Virus record (IMG/VR): IMGVR_UViG_3300033068_000989
Coordinates: 32,163 to 96,162 of that record
DNA from: a virus
Taxonomy: Duplodnaviria > Caudoviricetes
DNA: 64,000 nt
Reading direction: 5' to 3' (one strand)
Positions 4,843 to 18,949 of this stretch are shown piece by piece. Position numbers and translations under genes: made by a program. Each line of letters begins with the position of its first letter. Within the stretch, counting starts at the first letter, position 1. The notes beneath the pieces were generated by a model. That model ran no database searches. It was not told the origin of the DNA and saw nothing but the letters and a program-made list of their open reading frames with translations.

Positions 4843-6801
4843 ATGGATTTAACTAAAATACGCTTAGTAGCACCGTATTCAGTAGAAGGTATTGATAATG
4901 CTACTGTATGAGAGGCCTATAAGTATTTAAAACAATGTAAGTATATTACAGTAGATACAGAAACAGCTACTCACCCTTTATATACAAACATAGGATCTGG
5001 ATTAGATCCTTATACATCTATGCTAATCTCTATACAATTAGGAGATAAGGATAGACAATTTGTAATAGATACGAGATATGTTTCAATAGGTCCTTTAGCA
5101 TCTATATTAAGCTCAACTAAAATTGTGAAATTAGGTGTAAATTTAAAGTTTGATTACAAAATGATAAAACACCATTTAGGAATAGAGCTTAATAATATAT
5201 ATGACATAGGTTTAGCAGAGTTAATACTAACTAACGGATTAAATAAATCGTGGTCACTAGCAGCTATTGCTAAAAAATATTTAGATATAGATCTAAATAC
5301 TAAACAACTTTCTTTATGGGAATCCTATGTATCTAAGGATACAGTAAAACTTTATGAGAATTTAAAATATGAGAATCTTACTTTAGATCTAATAAAGTAC
5401 TCAGCTACAGATATTATTATTCCATCTCTAGTATATCCCAAAATACTTAAACAAATACGTGAAACTAATCAAGCTAAAGTAATAAAGTTAGAAAATGATT
5501 TCACTACTATAGTAGCAAAATGGGAATTAAAAGGAATTTATCTAGACGCAGATAAATGGTTAAATGTACTAGCGGATAATAAATTAGAATTATCTAAAGT
5601 AGAACAACAACTAAACCTGTATTTAATATCCCAAAAATTAGAACATTATTTAGGCATAAACTGGAACAGTTCTAAACAAGTCAGTGCTTTATTTAAGGAA
5701 TTAGATATACCTATACAAGTAATAGATTCAAAAAATAGTGTAGGAGATATCAAAGTTTATAAAAATACTGTGGGTCAAGCACATATAAAAAAGTTCAAAA
5801 GTAAGTTTGACATCTTACCATTATATCTGTCATATAAAAACTTATATAAAGCTATTAGTACATACGGATTTAAGTTTCTAAGTAATGTAAACCCTATATC
5901 TAATAGAATACACACAGACATTTATCAAATTAAGAGTACTGGTAGGATATCCTCATCAAGTCCTAATCTACAAAACATTCCTAGAACGGCTGATTTTAGG
6001 TCGTGTTTTATAGCACCAAAAGGAAAAACTTTTATTATATGTGACTACTCTGCTCAAGAGTCTAGAATTTTAGCTGACTATGCTAAAGAACCAGCAATGA
6101 TTGATTTTGCTATCAACGGTGATGGTGACTTTCACTCATTGACTGCTAAACAAATGTATGGAGAAGTAACACCAGAAAATAGGCCTATAGCTAAAATGTT
6201 AAATTTTGCTATTGCATATGGTGCATCAGCACATAAGATATCTGATCAAGCTCAGATTCCTACTAAACAAGCTCAAGAATTAATTGACCAATTCTTTAAG
6301 GCTTATCCTGTATTGAAACCATATTTTGAAAAAGTACAAAGACACGCATTAGGTAAAGGGTATCACATTACTGATGCTTATACTAAACGAAGATGTTATA
6401 TAGAGAATTTTGATAAGTATAAAACAGTAGAAGCTTACATCAAACATTATCAAAACTACTACCCATCTATAAAATTACCTTCAAAAATATGGTCAATATA
6501 CTTTAAAATGAAAGGCGAAATTGAAAGAGATAGTCAGAATTATCCTATTCAAGGGACTGGCGGTAGTATGACTAAATTAGCAGCAGTTTTAATAGATAAA
6601 GCTATTATAAAATTAGGTTGGAAAGAGAGAGCATATATCGTAAATATAATTCACGATGAAATTGTTGTAGAATGTGACACATCTATAGCAAATAAACTAT
6701 CTAAAATAGTGTCTAAATGTATGCAAGAAGCTGGTAAAATATTTATAAAAAGCGTACCGATGCCAGCAGAGGTACATATTTCTGAATTTTGGAAAAAATA
6801 A
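4843..6801 (+). CDS. polA: DNA polymerase family A (3'-5' exonuclease + polymerase), 652 aa with one in-frame TGA at 4909-4911
   Basis: ExoI motif ITVDTET...GLDPY lies upstream of the tracked start 5020; ExoII NLKFD; TGRISSSSPNLQNIP; motif A DYSAQESRI; motif B RPIAKMLNFAIAYG; motif C IIHDEI. Confidence 0.93.
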
Positions 6802-13694: not shown

Positions 13695-14744
13695 ATGAAA
13701 GGAAAAGATCTGTTTGAATCAATTTTAAACGAACAAAATATTTTGTTACGTATTAGTGATGAACAGATATTTTCTAGGTATATATGTAAAGTTCAAAACT
13801 CATTGTCTTCTCCATTTAGAGTAGATAAGAAGAACTCTTGTGGATTCTATAAGAATAATAAGGGTAGGTATATCTTGCATGACTTCTCTACTGGACAAAG
13901 TTGGGGAGCAATATATGCTGTAATGGAGAAGACTAAAATGAGCTATGCAGAAGTTCTTAAGATGATAAACAAAGATTTTGAATTGCGGTTAGATACTCTT
14001 AATCCTGTAAATAAAGTCAGAGAACTTCAAATAGAAGAAACAAAACCAGTAAATAACATATCATATAGTATTAAACCATACGAGAAAAAAGAAATAGAAT
14101 ATTGGGAACAATACGGAATTACTTCTAATACATTATTGAAATATGGTGTTTACTGTGTGCAGTCTGTACAGTTTGCAAATTCTTCTTGAAGAGCTACTAA
14201 AAATAATCCTATATTTGTTTACACCACAAAAGATCCAAAAGTATTTAAACTATATCGTCCATTATCAACTAATCAAAAATGGGCAGCAAAGACTAATAGG
14301 TATGTTATATGGGGGCTAACCCAATTACCTAATAAAGGAAGTTTATTAGTAATAACTAAATCATTAAAAGATGTAATGGTATTACATGAGTTAGGAATTC
14401 CAGCAATTAGTCCAGATTCTGAAGTAATTAATATTCCTAATAATATAATTAAGGAACTAAAAAAACGATTCAAGTATGTAGTAAGTATGTATGATTACGA
14501 TACAGCTGGTATAGCAGCTGCAACTAAATTAGATATACACTATATGTTTCTATTTAAAACTAAAGATATTTCAGATTATTATCAGAAATATGGTAAGTAT
14601 AGTACGTACAGAGTACTAAAAAAACTAATATCAAAATCTTATCATAGACATGAAAAATTCTTATTTCACCAAAACTTTATCAGACCTAGCCGACAAAATA
14701 ATAGGAAGTTTAGATTGGGATTCCAAAGAGATATACCCTTCTAA
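13695..14744 (+). CDS. dnaG: DNA primase (DnaG/TOPRIM), 349 aa with in-frame TGA at 14187-14189
   Basis: SPFRVDKKNSCGFY N-domain, EYWEQYGI, then *RATKNNPIFVY...KLYRP...LVITKSLKDVM...YDYDTAG; tracked ORFs 13695..14189 and 14376..14744 are one frame split only by TGA. Confidence 0.9.
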
Positions 14745-14880
14745 AGAAAATGTATTTAATATTTTAGACGATTTAAATAGATATAAATCTAAAGTTATAA
14801 TCATTGGTCAGGATCCGTACTACACACCAAACATGGCTACTGGCAGAGCATTTGATGTACCTGTAGGTACTACAAAACTT
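14650..14880 (+). pseudogene. ung: Uracil-DNA glycosylase family 1, N-terminal fragment
   Basis: IYPSKENVF...KVIIIGQDPY...ATGRAFDVP; similarity stops just before the expected PPSL motif. Confidence 0.85.
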
Positions 14881-14926
14881 AAACACAGCACTGCACCCTG
14901 CCTTGCGGCAAACGTGTGTTATGGGC
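14870..14926 (+). repeat. attC-like site 1 (right half only)
   Basis: Ends GTTATGGGC (14918-14926); left arm missing; acaaaactt at the ung junction also occurs in the loop of site 5. Confidence 0.6.
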
Positions 14927-14984
14927 TGCCGTTCTTTTTCGATATAGCTCTGGGAGGGCTTTGCAAAACCCACAATTAAATAAA

Positions 14985-15278
14985 ATGGTAGAAAACCAAA
15001 ATTTCGGACAAGCTATTGAAGCCTTAAAGCAAGGTAAGAGAGCAGCAAGACAAGGATGGAATGGAAAGGGAATGTTTCTCTTTTTGTTGCCAGCAGGAAC
15101 AGTACCAACCAAAGCAATTCACGACCCTGCATTAAGGGAAGTAATTGAGCAAGAAATTGGTGGAGAAACATTTGAAGCATTGGGAAGTATCCGAATGTTT
15201 ACAGCCGACAAAAAGATTTTGACTGGTTGGCTTGCTTCTCAAACTGATATTCTTTCAGAAGATTGGGTTATCCTGTAA
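14985..15278 (+). CDS. tad2: DUF2829 / Tad2-like anti-defence nucleotide sponge (cassette 1)
   Basis: NFGQAIEALKQGKRAARQGWNGKGMF...GWLASQTDILSEDW; ATG 14985 after an A-rich leader preferred to the tracked start 14916. Confidence 0.8.
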   Translation: MVENQNFGQAIEALKQGKRAARQGWNGKGMFLFLLPAGTVPTKAIHDPALREVIEQEIGGETFEALGSIRMFTADKKILTGWLASQTDILSEDWVIL

Positions 15279-15291
15279 AAATTGTGGGTTT

Positions 15292-15321
15292 CGTAGGACG
15301 GTCTTTCGGGGTCGTCTTACG
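15292..15321 (+). other. 13-bp hairpin with TTCG loop after the Tad2-like gene
   Basis: cgtaggacggtct-ttcg-gggtcgtcttacg, four G-T pairs, no U-tract. Confidence 0.6.
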
Positions 15322-15324
15322 GTT

Positions 15325-15391
15325 GCCCATAACGTTTTGGCTATGCGTTCGGCTGACGATAGGAAGCTGACGTATAGGTGTTGTTAACTAC
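15325..15391 (+). repeat. attC-like site 2
   Basis: GCCCATAAC...ctatgcgt[t]cggct / agctgacgtatag...GTTAACTAC; stem with one bulged T. Confidence 0.8.
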
Positions 15392-15424
15392 TGTGCGACT
15401 TTAATAATTAAAAATATAAATAGA

Positions 15425-15844
15425 ATGAAAAACTTACTTTGGTTAGATGATATTAGAAACCCTTTTTTAAATGAAGAGGGTAAAGTACCAACAGATAAAA
15501 ATGGTGAATACTACAATATAAACTGGGTTTTAAATTACGAACAGTTTGTAAAATGGATTGAAATTTTTGGGTTACCTGATGCAATTTCTTTTGACCACGA
15601 TTTAGCAGATGAACATTATACCCCTGAATACTTTTGGGATAATTACGAGGAAAGTAAAAAGTTTCAAGAATGGCGTGGCAAAAATTACCAAGAAAAAACA
15701 GGAATGGACTGCGCTAAATGGCTTGTGGATTACTGTATGGATAATAAAAAGAAATTGCCTGAAATATACATACACTCTGCAAATCCTGTTGGTGCGGATA
15801 ATATAAAAGGGTTGTTGGATAACTTTGCTAAGCATTGTAGTTAA
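15425..15844 (+). CDS. Cyclic-phosphate-processing receiver (REC)-like protein (cassette 2)
   Basis: LWLDDIRNP, ISFDHDL, KTGMDCAKWL, IHSANPVGADNI; stop codon inside GTAGTTAAC. Confidence 0.75.
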   Translation: MKNLLWLDDIRNPFLNEEGKVPTDKNGEYYNINWVLNYEQFVKWIEIFGLPDAISFDHDLADEHYTPEYFWDNYEESKKFQEWRGKNYQEKTGMDCAKWLVDYCMDNKKKLPEIYIHSANPVGADNIKGLLDNFAKHCS

Positions 15845-15931
15845 CAGGGCATTTACGCTGCCCCGTAATTGAAAAACAAAAGTTGAACAGCGAATTGTCC
15901 GCAGGGGTAGCGTAAATGCCTTGTTAGCGGA
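15837..15931 (+). repeat. attC-like site 3
   Basis: aacagggcatttacgctgcccc / ggggtagcgtaaatgccttgtt, 22-bp stem with two G-T pairs; ends GTTAGCGGA. Confidence 0.85.
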
Positions 15932-15947
15932 TGGTGCGGTAAATTAA

Positions 15948-16160
15948 ATGAAAATGGTAATTGAAAAAGAAATTAAAGTTGGAAGCAAATACAGATTTGT
16001 TTCACAAAGCATTGACGAAGTAGTAACTATTACAGAAAGTCCCATAAAAAATAGTAGAGGCTTTTTGGAATATGGAGCAAGAAACAAAGATGGTATTTAT
16101 CGCATTTGCTTCAATAACGAACTATTCAAATTGGAAATGTCAGATAGCACTTGCCGCTAA
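15948..16160 (+). CDS. Small hypothetical protein (cassette 3)
   Basis: 70 aa; stop codon inside GCCGCTAAC. Confidence 0.7.
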   Translation: MKMVIEKEIKVGSKYRFVSQSIDEVVTITESPIKNSRGFLEYGARNKDGIYRICFNNELFKLEMSDSTCR

Positions 16161-16243
16161 CGGACGGTAGGCAGTTTGGCGACAGTAGCCGAAGTGTTGG
16201 CATTGTGCGGTCGGGCAGCTTGCACAAAACCGCTGTTAGCTGC
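16153..16243 (+). repeat. attC-like site 4 (degenerate stem)
   Basis: GCCGCTAAC...GTTAGCTGC; inner pairing is broken into short hairpins (ttggc/gccga, ttgtgc/gcacaa). Confidence 0.65.
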
Positions 16244-16284
16244 TGCTGCGGTAGATTTAGTAGAAACTTAATTAAAAAACGAAA

Positions 16285-16845
16285 ATGGGAAGTATAAAAG
16301 GACAAAAACATAATCCATACATTGAGGGAAAGTATGCACACTTAAACCCGAATGATGTGGTATTTACGCCCGATTGGTTGGCGAAGCAGATTTGTGGGAT
16401 GTTTGATATTGATGGCAAAGTATTAGAGCCGTGTAAAGGTGAAGGTGCATTTTTGAAATACCTGCCTGAAAATACAGATTGGTGCGAAATTGCAGAAGGT
16501 AGGAATTATTATGACTATAACGAGAAAGTAGATTGGATTGTAACAAACCCACCTTACAGCGATTACAACCGATTTTTAGAACACTCATTTGCATTGGCAG
16601 ACAATATCGTATTACTTGTGCCTGTTGCAAAAATGTTCAAGAGTTTGGGAACTTTGAAACTGATATTTGAATATGGTGGGTTTGTATCAATACATACTTT
16701 ACCAGCAAGTAAGGCAGGTTTCCCATTCGGGTTTCCGTGTGCTGTTTATTATTTGAAACGTGGTTACAAAGGAGAAACTAAAATTGAAATGTTGCAATGT
16801 ATGGATAATGTTCAATCGGAGTTGTTCAGTAGCAGTTGCAGCTAA
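16285..16845 (+). CDS. Small amino (N6-adenine-type) DNA methyltransferase (cassette 4)
   Basis: VFTP, VLEPCKGEGAF (motif I), IVTNPPYS (motif IV); stop codon inside GCAGCTAAC. Confidence 0.85.
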   Translation: MGSIKGQKHNPYIEGKYAHLNPNDVVFTPDWLAKQICGMFDIDGKVLEPCKGEGAFLKYLPENTDWCEIAEGRNYYDYNEKVDWIVTNPPYSDYNRFLEHSFALADNIVLLVPVAKMFKSLGTLKLIFEYGGFVSIHTLPASKAGFPFGFPCAVYYLKRGYKGETKIEMLQCMDNVQSELFSSSCS

Positions 16846-16960
16846 CGTTTTGCGTATATACGCAGTGCAACGAAAACTTAATTTGAAACACAAAACTTGA
16901 AAATATATGAAAAATTTAATTAAAAAACTGAAAGCATTGCGTATATACGCAGTTAGCAGT
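16838..16960 (+). repeat. attC-like site 5 (loop contains a start codon)
   Basis: GCAGCTAAC gttt tgcgtatatacgcagtgc ... gcattgcgtatatacgca GTTAGCAGT. Confidence 0.85.
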
Positions 16961-17056
16961 AGTTGTGAACATTCCTTTTATAGATATGGTATTAGATACG
17001 GGAAAAATTTATATAGATGTAGTCATTGTGGAAAAGAAAAAAGCAATTACTGCTAA
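16907..17056 (+). CDS. 49-aa zinc-ribbon-like peptide starting in site 5 and finishing in cassette 5 (absent from ORF track)
   Basis: MKNLIKKLKALRIYA|VSSSCEHSF...YRCSHCGKEKSNYC; CxH...CxxC; stop codon inside ACTGCTAAC. Confidence 0.7.
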   Translation: MKNLIKKLKALRIYAVSSSCEHSFYRYGIRYGKNLYRCSHCGKEKSNYC

Positions 17057-17290
17057 CGTGCCGAGTGTAAACGTTAGTAAATTAAAATTATAGCACAAAT
17101 GACAAAAAAAGAACTGGCAAAGTGGCTTCACGATAATTACGAAGCAGTTGCAAAAGAACAAAATTGGAATACACAACAAAGTTGCAAGGTAGAGTTTAAC
17201 ACTTTGCCTGATGCTAATAAACGCACAATGATTGAGATAGCAGATAGGCTTCTTAATTTTAATTTATTGCGTTTACACTTTGTTATGAAA
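17049..17290 (+). repeat. attC-like site 6 with a ~160-nt protein-coding loop
   Basis: agtgtaaacg[t]tagtaaattaaaatta / taattttaatttattgcgtttacact, ~26-bp stem with bulged T; ends GTTATGAAA. Confidence 0.8.
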
Positions 17291-17380
17291 TCGTTGCCCG
17301 ATGATTACGAAATTTATCAAAAAGCACACGAGATTGACGAAAAAGACTTTGCTCAATGGATGTACGAACTATTTAGGTAG
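17099..17380 (+). CDS. Hypothetical protein: N-module inside site 6 fused to truncated cassette 6
   Basis: ORF crosses GTT (17282) in frame as Val (...RLHF|VMKS...); ends at the right junction with ung. Confidence 0.7.
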   Translation: MTKKELAKWLHDNYEAVAKEQNWNTQQSCKVEFNTLPDANKRTMIEIADRLLNFNLLRLHFVMKSLPDDYEIYQKAHEIDEKDFAQWMYELFR

Positions 17381-17496
17381 AGCGTATACTATCTAACTCT
17401 AAAAATTGCGGCACTTTCCCGCCATTTAGTGAGATAAATTGTTTTGAACTTGCAAATATTACATTAAAAATATTAAAAAAACCTATATTATGATAG
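17377..17496 (+). pseudogene. ung: Probable uracil-DNA glycosylase C-terminal fragment
   Basis: VERILSNSKNCGTFPPFSEINCFELANITLKILKKPIL-TGA-TAG resembles the UNG tail F...N.F..AN..L.....PI.W-stop. Confidence 0.6.
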
Positions 17497-17999
17497 AAAA
17501 ACATAAGGAGTTAGAATTATATACAATTAATAGGGGATGTTGTTTTGCATCCCCTTTTATATTTGTGTATGGAGCATTAAGAAAAGGACATGCTTTACAT
17601 GATAGATACATATCACCTAGTAGTATATATGTAGGTACATATAGACTGCAAGGATTTATATTAGGAGTAACTGATAGACTATATTCCTGTATGCATACGG
17701 GAAAAGAAACTGATTCAGTTGTTATAGAAATTTATAGAATTGACACTGATTTAAATGATCCATTTAAATCAGACAAGTCTATATATAAATTTGTAGATAT
17801 GTGTCAATGGAACTATAAACTAGATGTATTAGAAGAACGGTATAAAGTAGCTATAATTACAGTAGAGAAAGGTGCTATGCAAATTACAGGAAAATTATAC
17901 TTAAGTGAAAAAGTAAAAACATTATATAAAACTGGTGATGTAAATAATCCTAAGCATTTTGTAGATTATCCATTATTAACTATTAAAAAATCACAATAA
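17490..17999 (+). CDS. Gamma-glutamylcyclotransferase (AIG2-like)
   Basis: IFVYGALRKG..H motif, VVIEIY. Confidence 0.75.
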   Translation: MIEKHKELELYTINRGCCFASPFIFVYGALRKGHALHDRYISPSSIYVGTYRLQGFILGVTDRLYSCMHTGKETDSVVIEIYRIDTDLNDPFKSDKSIYKFVDMCQWNYKLDVLEERYKVAIITVEKGAMQITGKLYLSEKVKTLYKTGDVNNPKHFVDYPLLTIKKSQ

Positions 18000-18949
18000 T
18001 GAAATATTACCCACACTTCCTGGGAGGGAAATCATCAAAGATGAAGAGATACTTCAAGTTAAATAAAGAATTTCCAATAGGACATCCACAAAGATACCCA
18101 ATAGAAAATGCTTTGTTTCCATATAAAGTAGATATTTCTTTTGGAAGTACTAAGCCATCAGATAAACATGTATTAAGAATTAATACATCACAAGCAATTA
18201 AAAATTGTTCTAATAAAGTTTTAACTAAAAATATTCTAAAAGATAAGTGTCCTATTGTAACTAAATATGCTAAACTAAGTACATTCATAGTAGGCGATGA
18301 GTTACATATAGGTAAAATTAAAGAGCAAATAAGTTTTCCATTAGTAGCCAAACTAATATATGGATACGGTGGAATAGGAATGTACTTTATAAGCACATTA
18401 GATGACCTACTAGACTTTCTAGAAAGACAAAAAAATAATTTAAATAATTACTTTCTAGAAGAATATTTTAATACTACAAATGAGTATAGAGTACATATAT
18501 CACCTCTACTTAAAAATACTAAGATTCAATATAAATATGAGTATGGAGTACAAGTAAATGGTAAATGGGAAATTAAATTAAGTCTACCGAAAGTTTATGA
18601 AACTCGTGAAATTTTATCTGTTGAAAAGAAATTTTCTAATAATTCATTAATTAGAAACAGAGATAATGACGCAGTATTTTCTTCTAATTTTAGTAAACCA
18701 GATTGTTGGGAGAAATTAATTGAAGATTGTTTTAAAGCAGCTGAATTACTAGGCGTAGATTTCTGTTGTTTTGATGTACTATACAATAAAGACACAGGAA
18801 AATATGTAATCTGTGAAGCTAACTCTAATCCAGGAATGGATAACTCTATCACTAACTCATCTAAAAATATAACCGCACAACATTACCAACAAATGTTTCC
18901 CTATTTAATCACTAATAAATACTTAAAAGTATGTGCAGTTTCTTATTAA
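17999..18949 (+). CDS. ATP-grasp ligase (RimK-like)
   Basis: NKVLTK, FPLVAK..GYGGIGM, EEYF...EYRVH, LGVDFCCFDV, ICEANSNPGM. Confidence 0.85.
   Translation: MKYYPHFLGGKSSKMKRYFKLNKEFPIGHPQRYPIENALFPYKVDISFGSTKPSDKHVLRINTSQAIKNCSNKVLTKNILKDKCPIVTKYAKLSTFIVGDELHIGKIKEQISFPLVAKLIYGYGGIGMYFISTLDDLLDFLERQKNNLNNYFLEEYFNTTNEYRVHISPLLKNTKIQYKYEYGVQVNGKWEIKLSLPKVYETREILSVEKKFSNNSLIRNRDNDAVFSSNFSKPDCWEKLIEDCFKAAELLGVDFCCFDVLYNKDTGKYVICEANSNPGMDNSITNSSKNITAQHYQQMFPYLITNKYLKVCAVSY

Follow-up and report, generated by a model that had tools for sequence, protein, structure and literature searches.

Integrons are thought to move whole genes; in the locus described here, sites of that type fall within genes and link parts of proteins in frame. 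Within a 64-kb stretch of phage DNA (hereafter the window), which is part of a 96-kb virus record of ~30% G+C, two small ORFs begin inside attC-like hairpin sites and are read out of the site into the sequence behind it. Where sites lie within genes and join their parts in frame, recombination makes new proteins, beyond new gene orders. We think it fairly likely that the two ORFs are local cases of a modular system that is widespread in phages, probably those of Bacteroidota, and in which protein heads and protein tails are re-paired in frame.

The window matches named phages only weakly and over short segments: part of a primase resembles that of the crAss-like phage cr118_1, and segments of the cassette genes match Cellulophaga and Tenacibaculum phages. 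The primase-like gene of the window is split over two ORFs, one for the N-terminal domain and one for the Toprim domain (13695-14744). When both strands of all 64 kb are scanned, attC-like sites are confined to a single array (Table 1), the right end of which was placed by comparison with a related locus, L137. Sites 2-6 are imperfect inverted repeats in the R''-L''...L'-R' order of attC sites, their R boxes ending on the inner side in AAC and GTT, and 192 sites in related loci share this layout of boxes and arms. By the site scan, six sites fall within 2.5 kb with no integrase near, which is the arrangement (at least two attC-type sites close by, without an integrase) that characterizes CALINs. 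Such attC clusters are known in virulent phages (Qi et al. 2023, PMC9892861). A search with the PF00589 profile finds no tyrosine recombinase in the 96-kb record, nor is there one in two complete relatives, and this phage is without the integrase of a complete integron, in which an IntI with its specific insertion, an attI site, and a promoter lie by the array. The array in the window is a captured fragment that lacks an integrase. It carries the complete cassettes listed in Table 1 and a further 70-aa ORF in addition to the two ORFs considered here. The cargo of the complete cassettes is of the counter-defense type, as is that of a related locus, L136, with an ART-PolyVal protein, two N6_N4 methyltransferases, and an ASCH protein. 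At its site of insertion, the array interrupts a uracil-DNA-glycosylase-like gene that is recognizable by a GQDPY motif near 14810; the middle of this gene is missing, and its flanks lie at 14650-14880 and 17371-17490.

Sites 5 and 6 differ in size and share one plan. The arms of site 5 (16851-16868 and 16934-16951) are 18 nt long, 94% complementary, and 65 nt apart in an inverted-repeat search, and the start codon of the 49-aa ORF (ATG 16907; ORF 16907-17056) sits in this 65-nt loop. Codon 16 of the ORF is the GTT of the site (16952-16954) and is followed by AGC AGT, and there is no in-frame ATG, GTG, or TTG past the GTT at which translation of the rest could start. The stop, TAA 17054-17056, lies within the GCTAAC (17052-17057) that opens the next site. 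In site 6 the arms (17064-17090 and 17254-17279) measure ~27 nt, with a 13-nt part that is perfectly paired and an additional 10-bp inner stem. Codons 1-61 of the 93-aa ORF (17099-17380) lie within the site, and codon 62 is GTT, followed by ATG AAA. The original prediction had described this anatomy from the letters of the window: a cassette 5 without a start of its own, whose ORF arises in the site loop, crosses the core as GTT AGC AGT, and is stopped in frame by the closing TAAC, and a site 6 with a loop of ~160 nt that holds ~61 codons before the core is read as V-M-K. Coordinates and frames agree with that description in both cases. The second tail is incomplete: the array ends within it, at 17370/17371. 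A metagenome contig (L018) has the same junction, and an intact homologue (P0001 in L137) extends this tail by 20 nt to an R'' of its own.

Table 1. Positions of the array, its sites and modules in the window, and of two recombinase genes in related loci
Feature	Position	Strand	Description	Basis
Array	14877..17370	+	Six attC-like sites and cassettes, no integrase; insert of 37% G+C, phage genome of 30% G+C	Composition, sequence, site scan
Tad2-like protein (PF11195)	14985-15278		Complete cassette	
cREC_REC protein (PF20274)	15425-15844		Complete cassette	
NPPY DNA methyltransferase	16285-16845		Complete cassette	
Site 5	16841..16957	+	R'' GCTAAC 16841-16846; R' GTTAGC 16952-16957; constrained fold -36.1 kcal	
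Mini-head of site 5	16907..16951	+	15 codons within site 5, the last ones from the L' arm	ORF list
Tail module 5, headless	16952..17057	+	GTT to GCTAAC; zinc-ribbon-like, 33 codons past the Val; own start codon absent; ends mutually complementary	
Site 6	17052..17287	+	R'' GCTAAC 17052-17057; R' GTTATG 17282-17287; 163-nt coding loop	
62-aa head (N-module) of site 6	17099..17284	+	Conserved; ends in residues encoded by the L' arm and Val	Homologue alignment
Tail 6, truncated	17285..17380	+	Module to 17370; last codons and stop from the phage backbone	
Xer/IntI-like recombinase, example	L129:1183-1983			
Xer/IntI-like recombinase, example	L132:1459-2262	-		

The product of site 6 gives the clearest view of where one module ends and the next begins. 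Its 151 homologue clusters all derive from phage or metagenome DNA, and they are ~90% identical over residues 1-62 and unrelated past the Val; in an alignment of 46 clusters, residues 1-62 are nearly invariant and no alignment is possible after the Val. Val stands at the junction in 103 of the 110 homologues that could be parsed, and the tail measures 26-40 aa in 96 of the 110. Carriers of the head include phage contigs with genes for replication or queuosine, four viral records, and eleven metagenome contigs; among bacteria and archaea, searched at one genome per species, the sole match was a 16-residue fragment. At the DNA level, the conserved unit of site 6 in 14 independent copies is bounded by the AAC of R'' and the GTT of R', and both flanks diverge at the boxes. 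Variable sites within the head number 15, 5, and 27 at codon positions 1, 2, and 3 (14 distinct DNA copies), which is the pattern of a translated gene. The structural model of the head has two helices (pLDDT ~85 in the head), and all 50 of the 50 Foldseek matches listed for it are RyR domains, weak ones (E 0.2-1.2, TM ~0.4); neither the RyR profile (PF02026) nor any other Pfam profile matches the head. For the head-tail proteins as a group, Pfam and PHROGs hold no family and give weak zinc-ribbon matches only.

Most tails behind the site-6 head open with one 21-nt sequence, GTTGTAGGGCRAAGCGAACAG, and this motif by itself leads to 106 viral contigs. There it nearly always falls in the middle of an ORF of 75-100 aa, with very diverse heads of ~30-60 aa before it and diverse tails of ~30-40 aa behind it, and each of these heads lies within the loop of a site, in the order R'', L'', A/T-rich leader, ATG, head, L', GTT. 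One such gene, Gundel1_62, is present in an isolate, Tenacibaculum phage Gundel_1, where it is annotated as a single CDS. Two Cys/His pairs of a zinc-ribbon-like kind are found in 110 of 206 distinct tails and in none of 190 heads. The variation within the motif is purely non-synonymous, an indication that the DNA itself is constrained. The motif (for example L002:6184-6204) includes GCGAAGC, found on the sense strand only, which we take to be an unusually stable DNA mini-hairpin. A second conserved type of junction, V-x-x-S-L-P (GTTAKS...TCGTTGCC), lies behind different heads in the window (17285-17310), in L016, and in L037 (minus strand, ~6200).

The reading frame at the GTT is far from random, as had been anticipated. 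Of 99 motif junctions flanked by sufficient sequence, 98 have no stop codon in the GTT frame over at least 25 codons to either side; neither of the other two frames is open to this extent in any of the 99. The same question can be put to the 192 sites picked by structure alone, in which ORFs born in the site and crossing the GTT do so in frame 0 in 72 cases, in frame 1 in 12, and in frame 2 in 4. The 45 sites shorter than 100 nt contribute 1, 0, and 0 of these ORFs in frames 0, 1, and 2, the 80 sites of 100-149 nt contribute 20, 12, and 3, and the 67 sites of at least 150 nt contribute 51, 0, and 1. Loop size predicts coding, from 1 of 45 of the shortest sites to 51 of 67 of the longest. The phase at the crossover had been expected to be fixed. 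Frame 0 does dominate, but the sites fall into three phase classes. Module lengths are related as well, with short heads of 13-28 aa leading into long bodies of 50-230 aa, and long heads leading into short tails.

The hairpins themselves bear marks of selection. When the 5'UTR of each of 109 related junctions is paired with the L' arm of its own locus, the median is -23.9 kcal, compared to -11.5 kcal when the 5'UTR of another locus is substituted, and -15 kcal or lower is reached by 88 of the 109 own pairs versus 113 of 545 controls. Because the arms differ in sequence from locus to locus and yet pair far better with their own partner than with a foreign one, the structure must be under selection. 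Structure is kept while sequence varies, with covarying arms, as is characteristic of attC sites. The two ends of a tail (R' and the next R'') are complementary too, with an inner stem that covaries. There is also a pronounced strand bias: for sites identified through their motif and ORF, the sense strand gives the better fold in 90 cases versus 1 with RNA parameters and in 81 versus 4 with DNA parameters, and G.T pairs number 326 in sense-strand stems versus 48 on the other strand. Sites 4-6 of the window have extra unpaired bases on the 5' arm, as judged by eye; in attC sites, extrahelical bases mark the bottom strand that is recombined. Rfam holds no family for the sites.

If heads and tails are separate modules, they should be found apart, and the original prediction was that homologues would switch partners exactly at the Val. 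This is what the related loci show, the site-6 head being found on dozens of unrelated tails and tail 5 behind a different head of 41 aa. Among 116 distinct junctions, drawn from comparison data that are nearly all metagenome contigs, 104 pairs share the head only and have unrelated tails, and 8 pairs share the tail only (81-100% nucleotide identity) behind unrelated heads, so that the halves are not always found together. The identity of shared tails extends from the GTT to just past the AAC, and that of shared heads from the AAC of R'' to the GTT. A set of 217 distinct head-tail proteins resolves into 84 head clusters and 105 tail clusters, with at least two head clusters in 15 of the 22 tail clusters that have several members; single-linkage clustering lumps most of the zinc ribbons, and these counts thus understate the diversity of tails. 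As far as comparison of sequences can tell, the shuffling would encode new chimeric proteins and go beyond the reordering of genes, in line with the prediction. The further claim that any N-module could be fused to any C-module fares less well. Re-pairing in frame is seen, but the 62-aa head is paired only with short tails and the pairing is therefore restricted; a search for longer fusions, which is weak evidence, found this head on no partner of 164 aa or more.

The two ORFs of the window can be placed within this pool. The copy of tail 5 in L136 is 97% identical exactly from GTT to GCTAACG and has unrelated flanking nucleotides; it follows the unrelated 41-aa head (P0121, 75 aa), and the site after it is a compact one and not site 6. 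A mini-head like that of site 5 (15 aa) recurs in a 108-nt site of L089, there on a different tail of 59 aa. The 49-aa ORF is most likely a by-product of rearrangement, a mini-head on a tail whose fuller partner elsewhere is the 41-aa head. Both examples in the window look like by-products of this kind, the one a mini-head on an orphan tail and the other a head on a truncated tail.

The linkage of the parts bears on how they move. Head and tail are shared with both flanks different in 4 pairs, an upstream gene is shared together with the head in 0, and a tail together with the next site in 0. In an integron cassette, the cargo is linked to the attC site that follows it and there is a single crossover at G|TT; here, shared tails lose identity right past the AAC(G). 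This pattern, read from sequence comparison, suggests that a site usually travels with the gene behind it, which is not classical integron behavior, and the AAC end appears to be the more constant crossover. The classical cassette model, in which the cargo moves with the following attC site, was rejected on this linkage. A model in which the crossover splits a gene, and a circular cassette joins the site-6 head to the preceding tail, was also dropped, this tail being found elsewhere without site 6. A more recent event can be read from L018, which is 99% identical to the window (15864-18024) on both sides, including the right junction of the array, and in which a different head-body gene (114 aa) stands where the window has cassettes 4 and 5. 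Its right break lies at the TAAC of site 6, and its left break lies inside the loop of site 4 and not at a box. With the same right junction and another cassette, L018 indicates that the array has changed since its capture by this phage lineage.

A candidate enzyme is found in related phages. Tyrosine recombinases are encoded by 10 of 48 motif-bearing viral records and are Xer/IntI-like in 6 of these, and most motif-bearing records lack one. The Xer/IntI-like proteins are 263-274 aa long (~266 aa) and score below the NCBIfam cutoffs for XerA and integron integrase, with TIGR02249 giving 145-150 bits in two stretches against a cutoff of 265. Both sequences that were read, those of L129 and L132, have recognizable catalytic R, HxxR, H, and Y residues. 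In all six loci inspected (L128-L133), the gene starts 50-65 nt past the last cassette on the same strand. A homologue of 41% identity occurs in 2 of 37 further records, G065 and G073 (L134, L135), the position at the array end having been read in L128-L133. A recombinase that follows the last cassette looks like a mirror image of the integron platform, one that is absent from the phage of the window. Turned over, the layout is that of an integron with its genes facing the other way, so that crossover would usually take place at the AA|C end and the site would move with the gene behind it.

In the picture that emerges, an attC-like site (R''..AAC, L'', loop, L', GTT..R') can hold an A/T-rich leader, a start codon, and a head of 13 to ~60 codons. 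Of the two arms, the 3' arm alone is coding; the reading frame passes through L', takes the GTT as Val, and continues into the tail, the stop of which lies in or beside the next R''. Heads, which extend from AAC to GTT, and tails, which extend from GTT to AAC, behave as distinct modules of recombination and have been re-paired in frame over evolution, with many chimeric small proteins as the outcome. The likely mechanism is structure-specific recombination at the base of hairpins formed by the sense strand, with a putative Xer/IntI-like tyrosine recombinase from another phage or from the host as the enzyme. The usual crossover may be AA|C, with the site moving together with the gene behind it. 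The GTT would serve as a second exchange point, used either through the other strand, as is known at lower frequency, or through homologous exchange in the ~35-nt constant junction block. In the window, site 5 supplies a 15-aa mini-head to an orphan zinc-ribbon tail, and site 6 a 62-aa head to a tail cut short where the array ends. The sequences show the anatomy and the frames, the switching of partners, the breakpoints, the strand bias, and selection on the coding sequence; which enzyme acts, on which strand, and whether shuffling brings a benefit are inferred. Breaks at both boxes, and tails that are never linked to the following site, do not fit the integron reaction with its one crossover. 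Against the proposal itself stand the missing recombinase, in this phage as in its two complete relatives and most motif-bearing records, and the left break of L018, which falls in a site loop instead of at a box.

The same observations lend themselves to a reading in which exchange is not site-specific and proceeds by homologous or microhomology recombination between conserved linkers, much as for the PeSL elements of T4-type phages. The ~35-nt block around the GTT (L' consensus and 21-nt motif) and a 10-14-nt block at R'' would provide the homologies. Around the GTT, this block is nearly constant in the main family, and homologous recombination could therefore produce the same pattern. The motif is identical in 106 viral contigs, most of its carriers have no tyrosine recombinase, and the left break of L018 lies within the left half of a site that both loci share. 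PeSL-mediated shuffling is moreover documented in T4-type phages (PMC2839356). Set against this, many breaks share only TAAC or GTT and have unrelated flanks (the window versus L136, L137, and L018), the site-6 head is joined to tails whose R' boxes are of at least five types, and the arms covary in a way that keeps a structure for which homology-driven exchange has no need. Homology-driven exchange is possible for the motif family and fits poorly where only TAAC or GTT is shared, and as an account of the whole we regard it as unlikely.

We give still less credence to the reading in which the hairpins act chiefly in mRNA, controlling the translation, processing, or stability of small early genes, so that exchange would be a side effect of conserved stem bases. 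The strong bias toward the sense strand, in G.T(U) pairs as in folding, fits a structure acting in mRNA equally well, and the start codon does lie in the loop of a long-range stem. Yet compact non-coding sites of the same family stand between complete genes, as in integron arrays, and six loci have the Xer/IntI-like recombinase at the array end; no Rfam family matches, and the GCGAAGC in the junction motif would presumably form its stable mini-hairpin as DNA. A role in mRNA is also compatible with recombination of the DNA, and as the main explanation we consider it quite improbable. It is more improbable by far that these are ordinary small genes with fast-diverging C-termini, or chimeric assemblies of mostly metagenomic contigs in which the head, a 230-nt repeat, could have misled assemblers: divergence cannot place the same tails (81-100% nucleotide identity) behind unrelated heads, tail modules of ~105 nt are flanked by repeats of 21 nt and 10 nt that are shorter than the usual final assembly k-mers, and independent samples (window, L018, L137, L138) yield the same combinations, so that together with the single CDS of the Gundel_1 isolate both readings are contradicted.

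The preferred reading, of heads and tails re-paired at coding sites, has points of contact with several known systems. The sites resemble integron attC sites and CALINs in their imperfect AAC/GTT hairpins with structure kept while sequence varies, in small co-oriented gene arrays with the stop codon in R'', and in a cargo of methyltransferases and other conflict genes, with most phage carriers lacking an integrase. They differ from integron attC sites in loops of 100-230 nt that contain a start codon and a head read in frame through the box, and also in having breaks at both boxes, cargo unlinked to the following site, and a sense strand that folds better. Where a recombinase is present, it follows the last cassette on the same strand and is without the IntI insertion, unlike in integrons. 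Synthetic attC sites have been placed in protein-coding sequence; these were engineered, had small loops, and were tested with IntI1 (Nivina et al. 2020, PMC7439510). That design has in common with the present sites an attC-type hairpin in the reading frame that serves as a peptide linker, with recombination inside the gene, whereas here the sites are natural and the loop is a whole N-terminal module with its start codon. Fused gene cassettes of class 1 integrons are rare accidents that arise from loss of attC (PMC4670013). They too yield a protein that is read across a cassette boundary, but in our case the sites remain intact, with a systematically preserved frame and with parts that reassort.

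The PeSL cassettes of T4-type phages place a promoter and a terminator between whole genes and are exchanged by homology (Arbiol et al. 2010, PMC2839356; PMC4122927), and a PeSL is recognized by a sigma-70 early promoter with a compact terminator stem-loop. As with PeSLs, short conserved stem-loops flank small phage genes of unknown function and there is modular shuffling; unlike with PeSLs, one of the two exchange points lies inside the gene, in a fixed frame. In shufflons and other cases of C-terminal switching (Rci with PilV, invertible tail-fiber segments), a dedicated recombinase inverts resident segments within one genome. Shufflons likewise join an N-terminal part in frame to alternative C-terminal parts, and do so by site-specific recombination, whereas in the phages considered here no single genome contains a resident set of alternatives, and exchange is seen between genomes. 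Full-text searches of the literature gave no description of natural attC-type sites that encode protein heads.

It is possible, though on balance we lean against it, that phages, probably those of Bacteroidota, possess in these arrays a natural counterpart of exon shuffling, in which recombination sites are coding and have phase classes, a pool of heads and tails supplies new small proteins, perhaps for host takeover or counter-defense, and an Xer/IntI-like recombinase of the phages' own works on a mirror-image integron platform. Such a system would be the analogue of exon shuffling in viruses of prokaryotes and a natural precedent for engineered coding attC sites (Nivina et al. 2020). The head-tail genes define a very large and unannotated pool of two-part small phage proteins that lies beside counter-defense genes. 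They also point to a candidate recombinase and to an isolate, Tenacibaculum phage Gundel_1, as a direct test system for translation, recombination, and function. A doubled gene is found in L086 (minus strand, junctions at 6787 and 8553), which carries the same head-tail gene twice, with identity extending only ~180 nt before the GTT and 90 nt after it.
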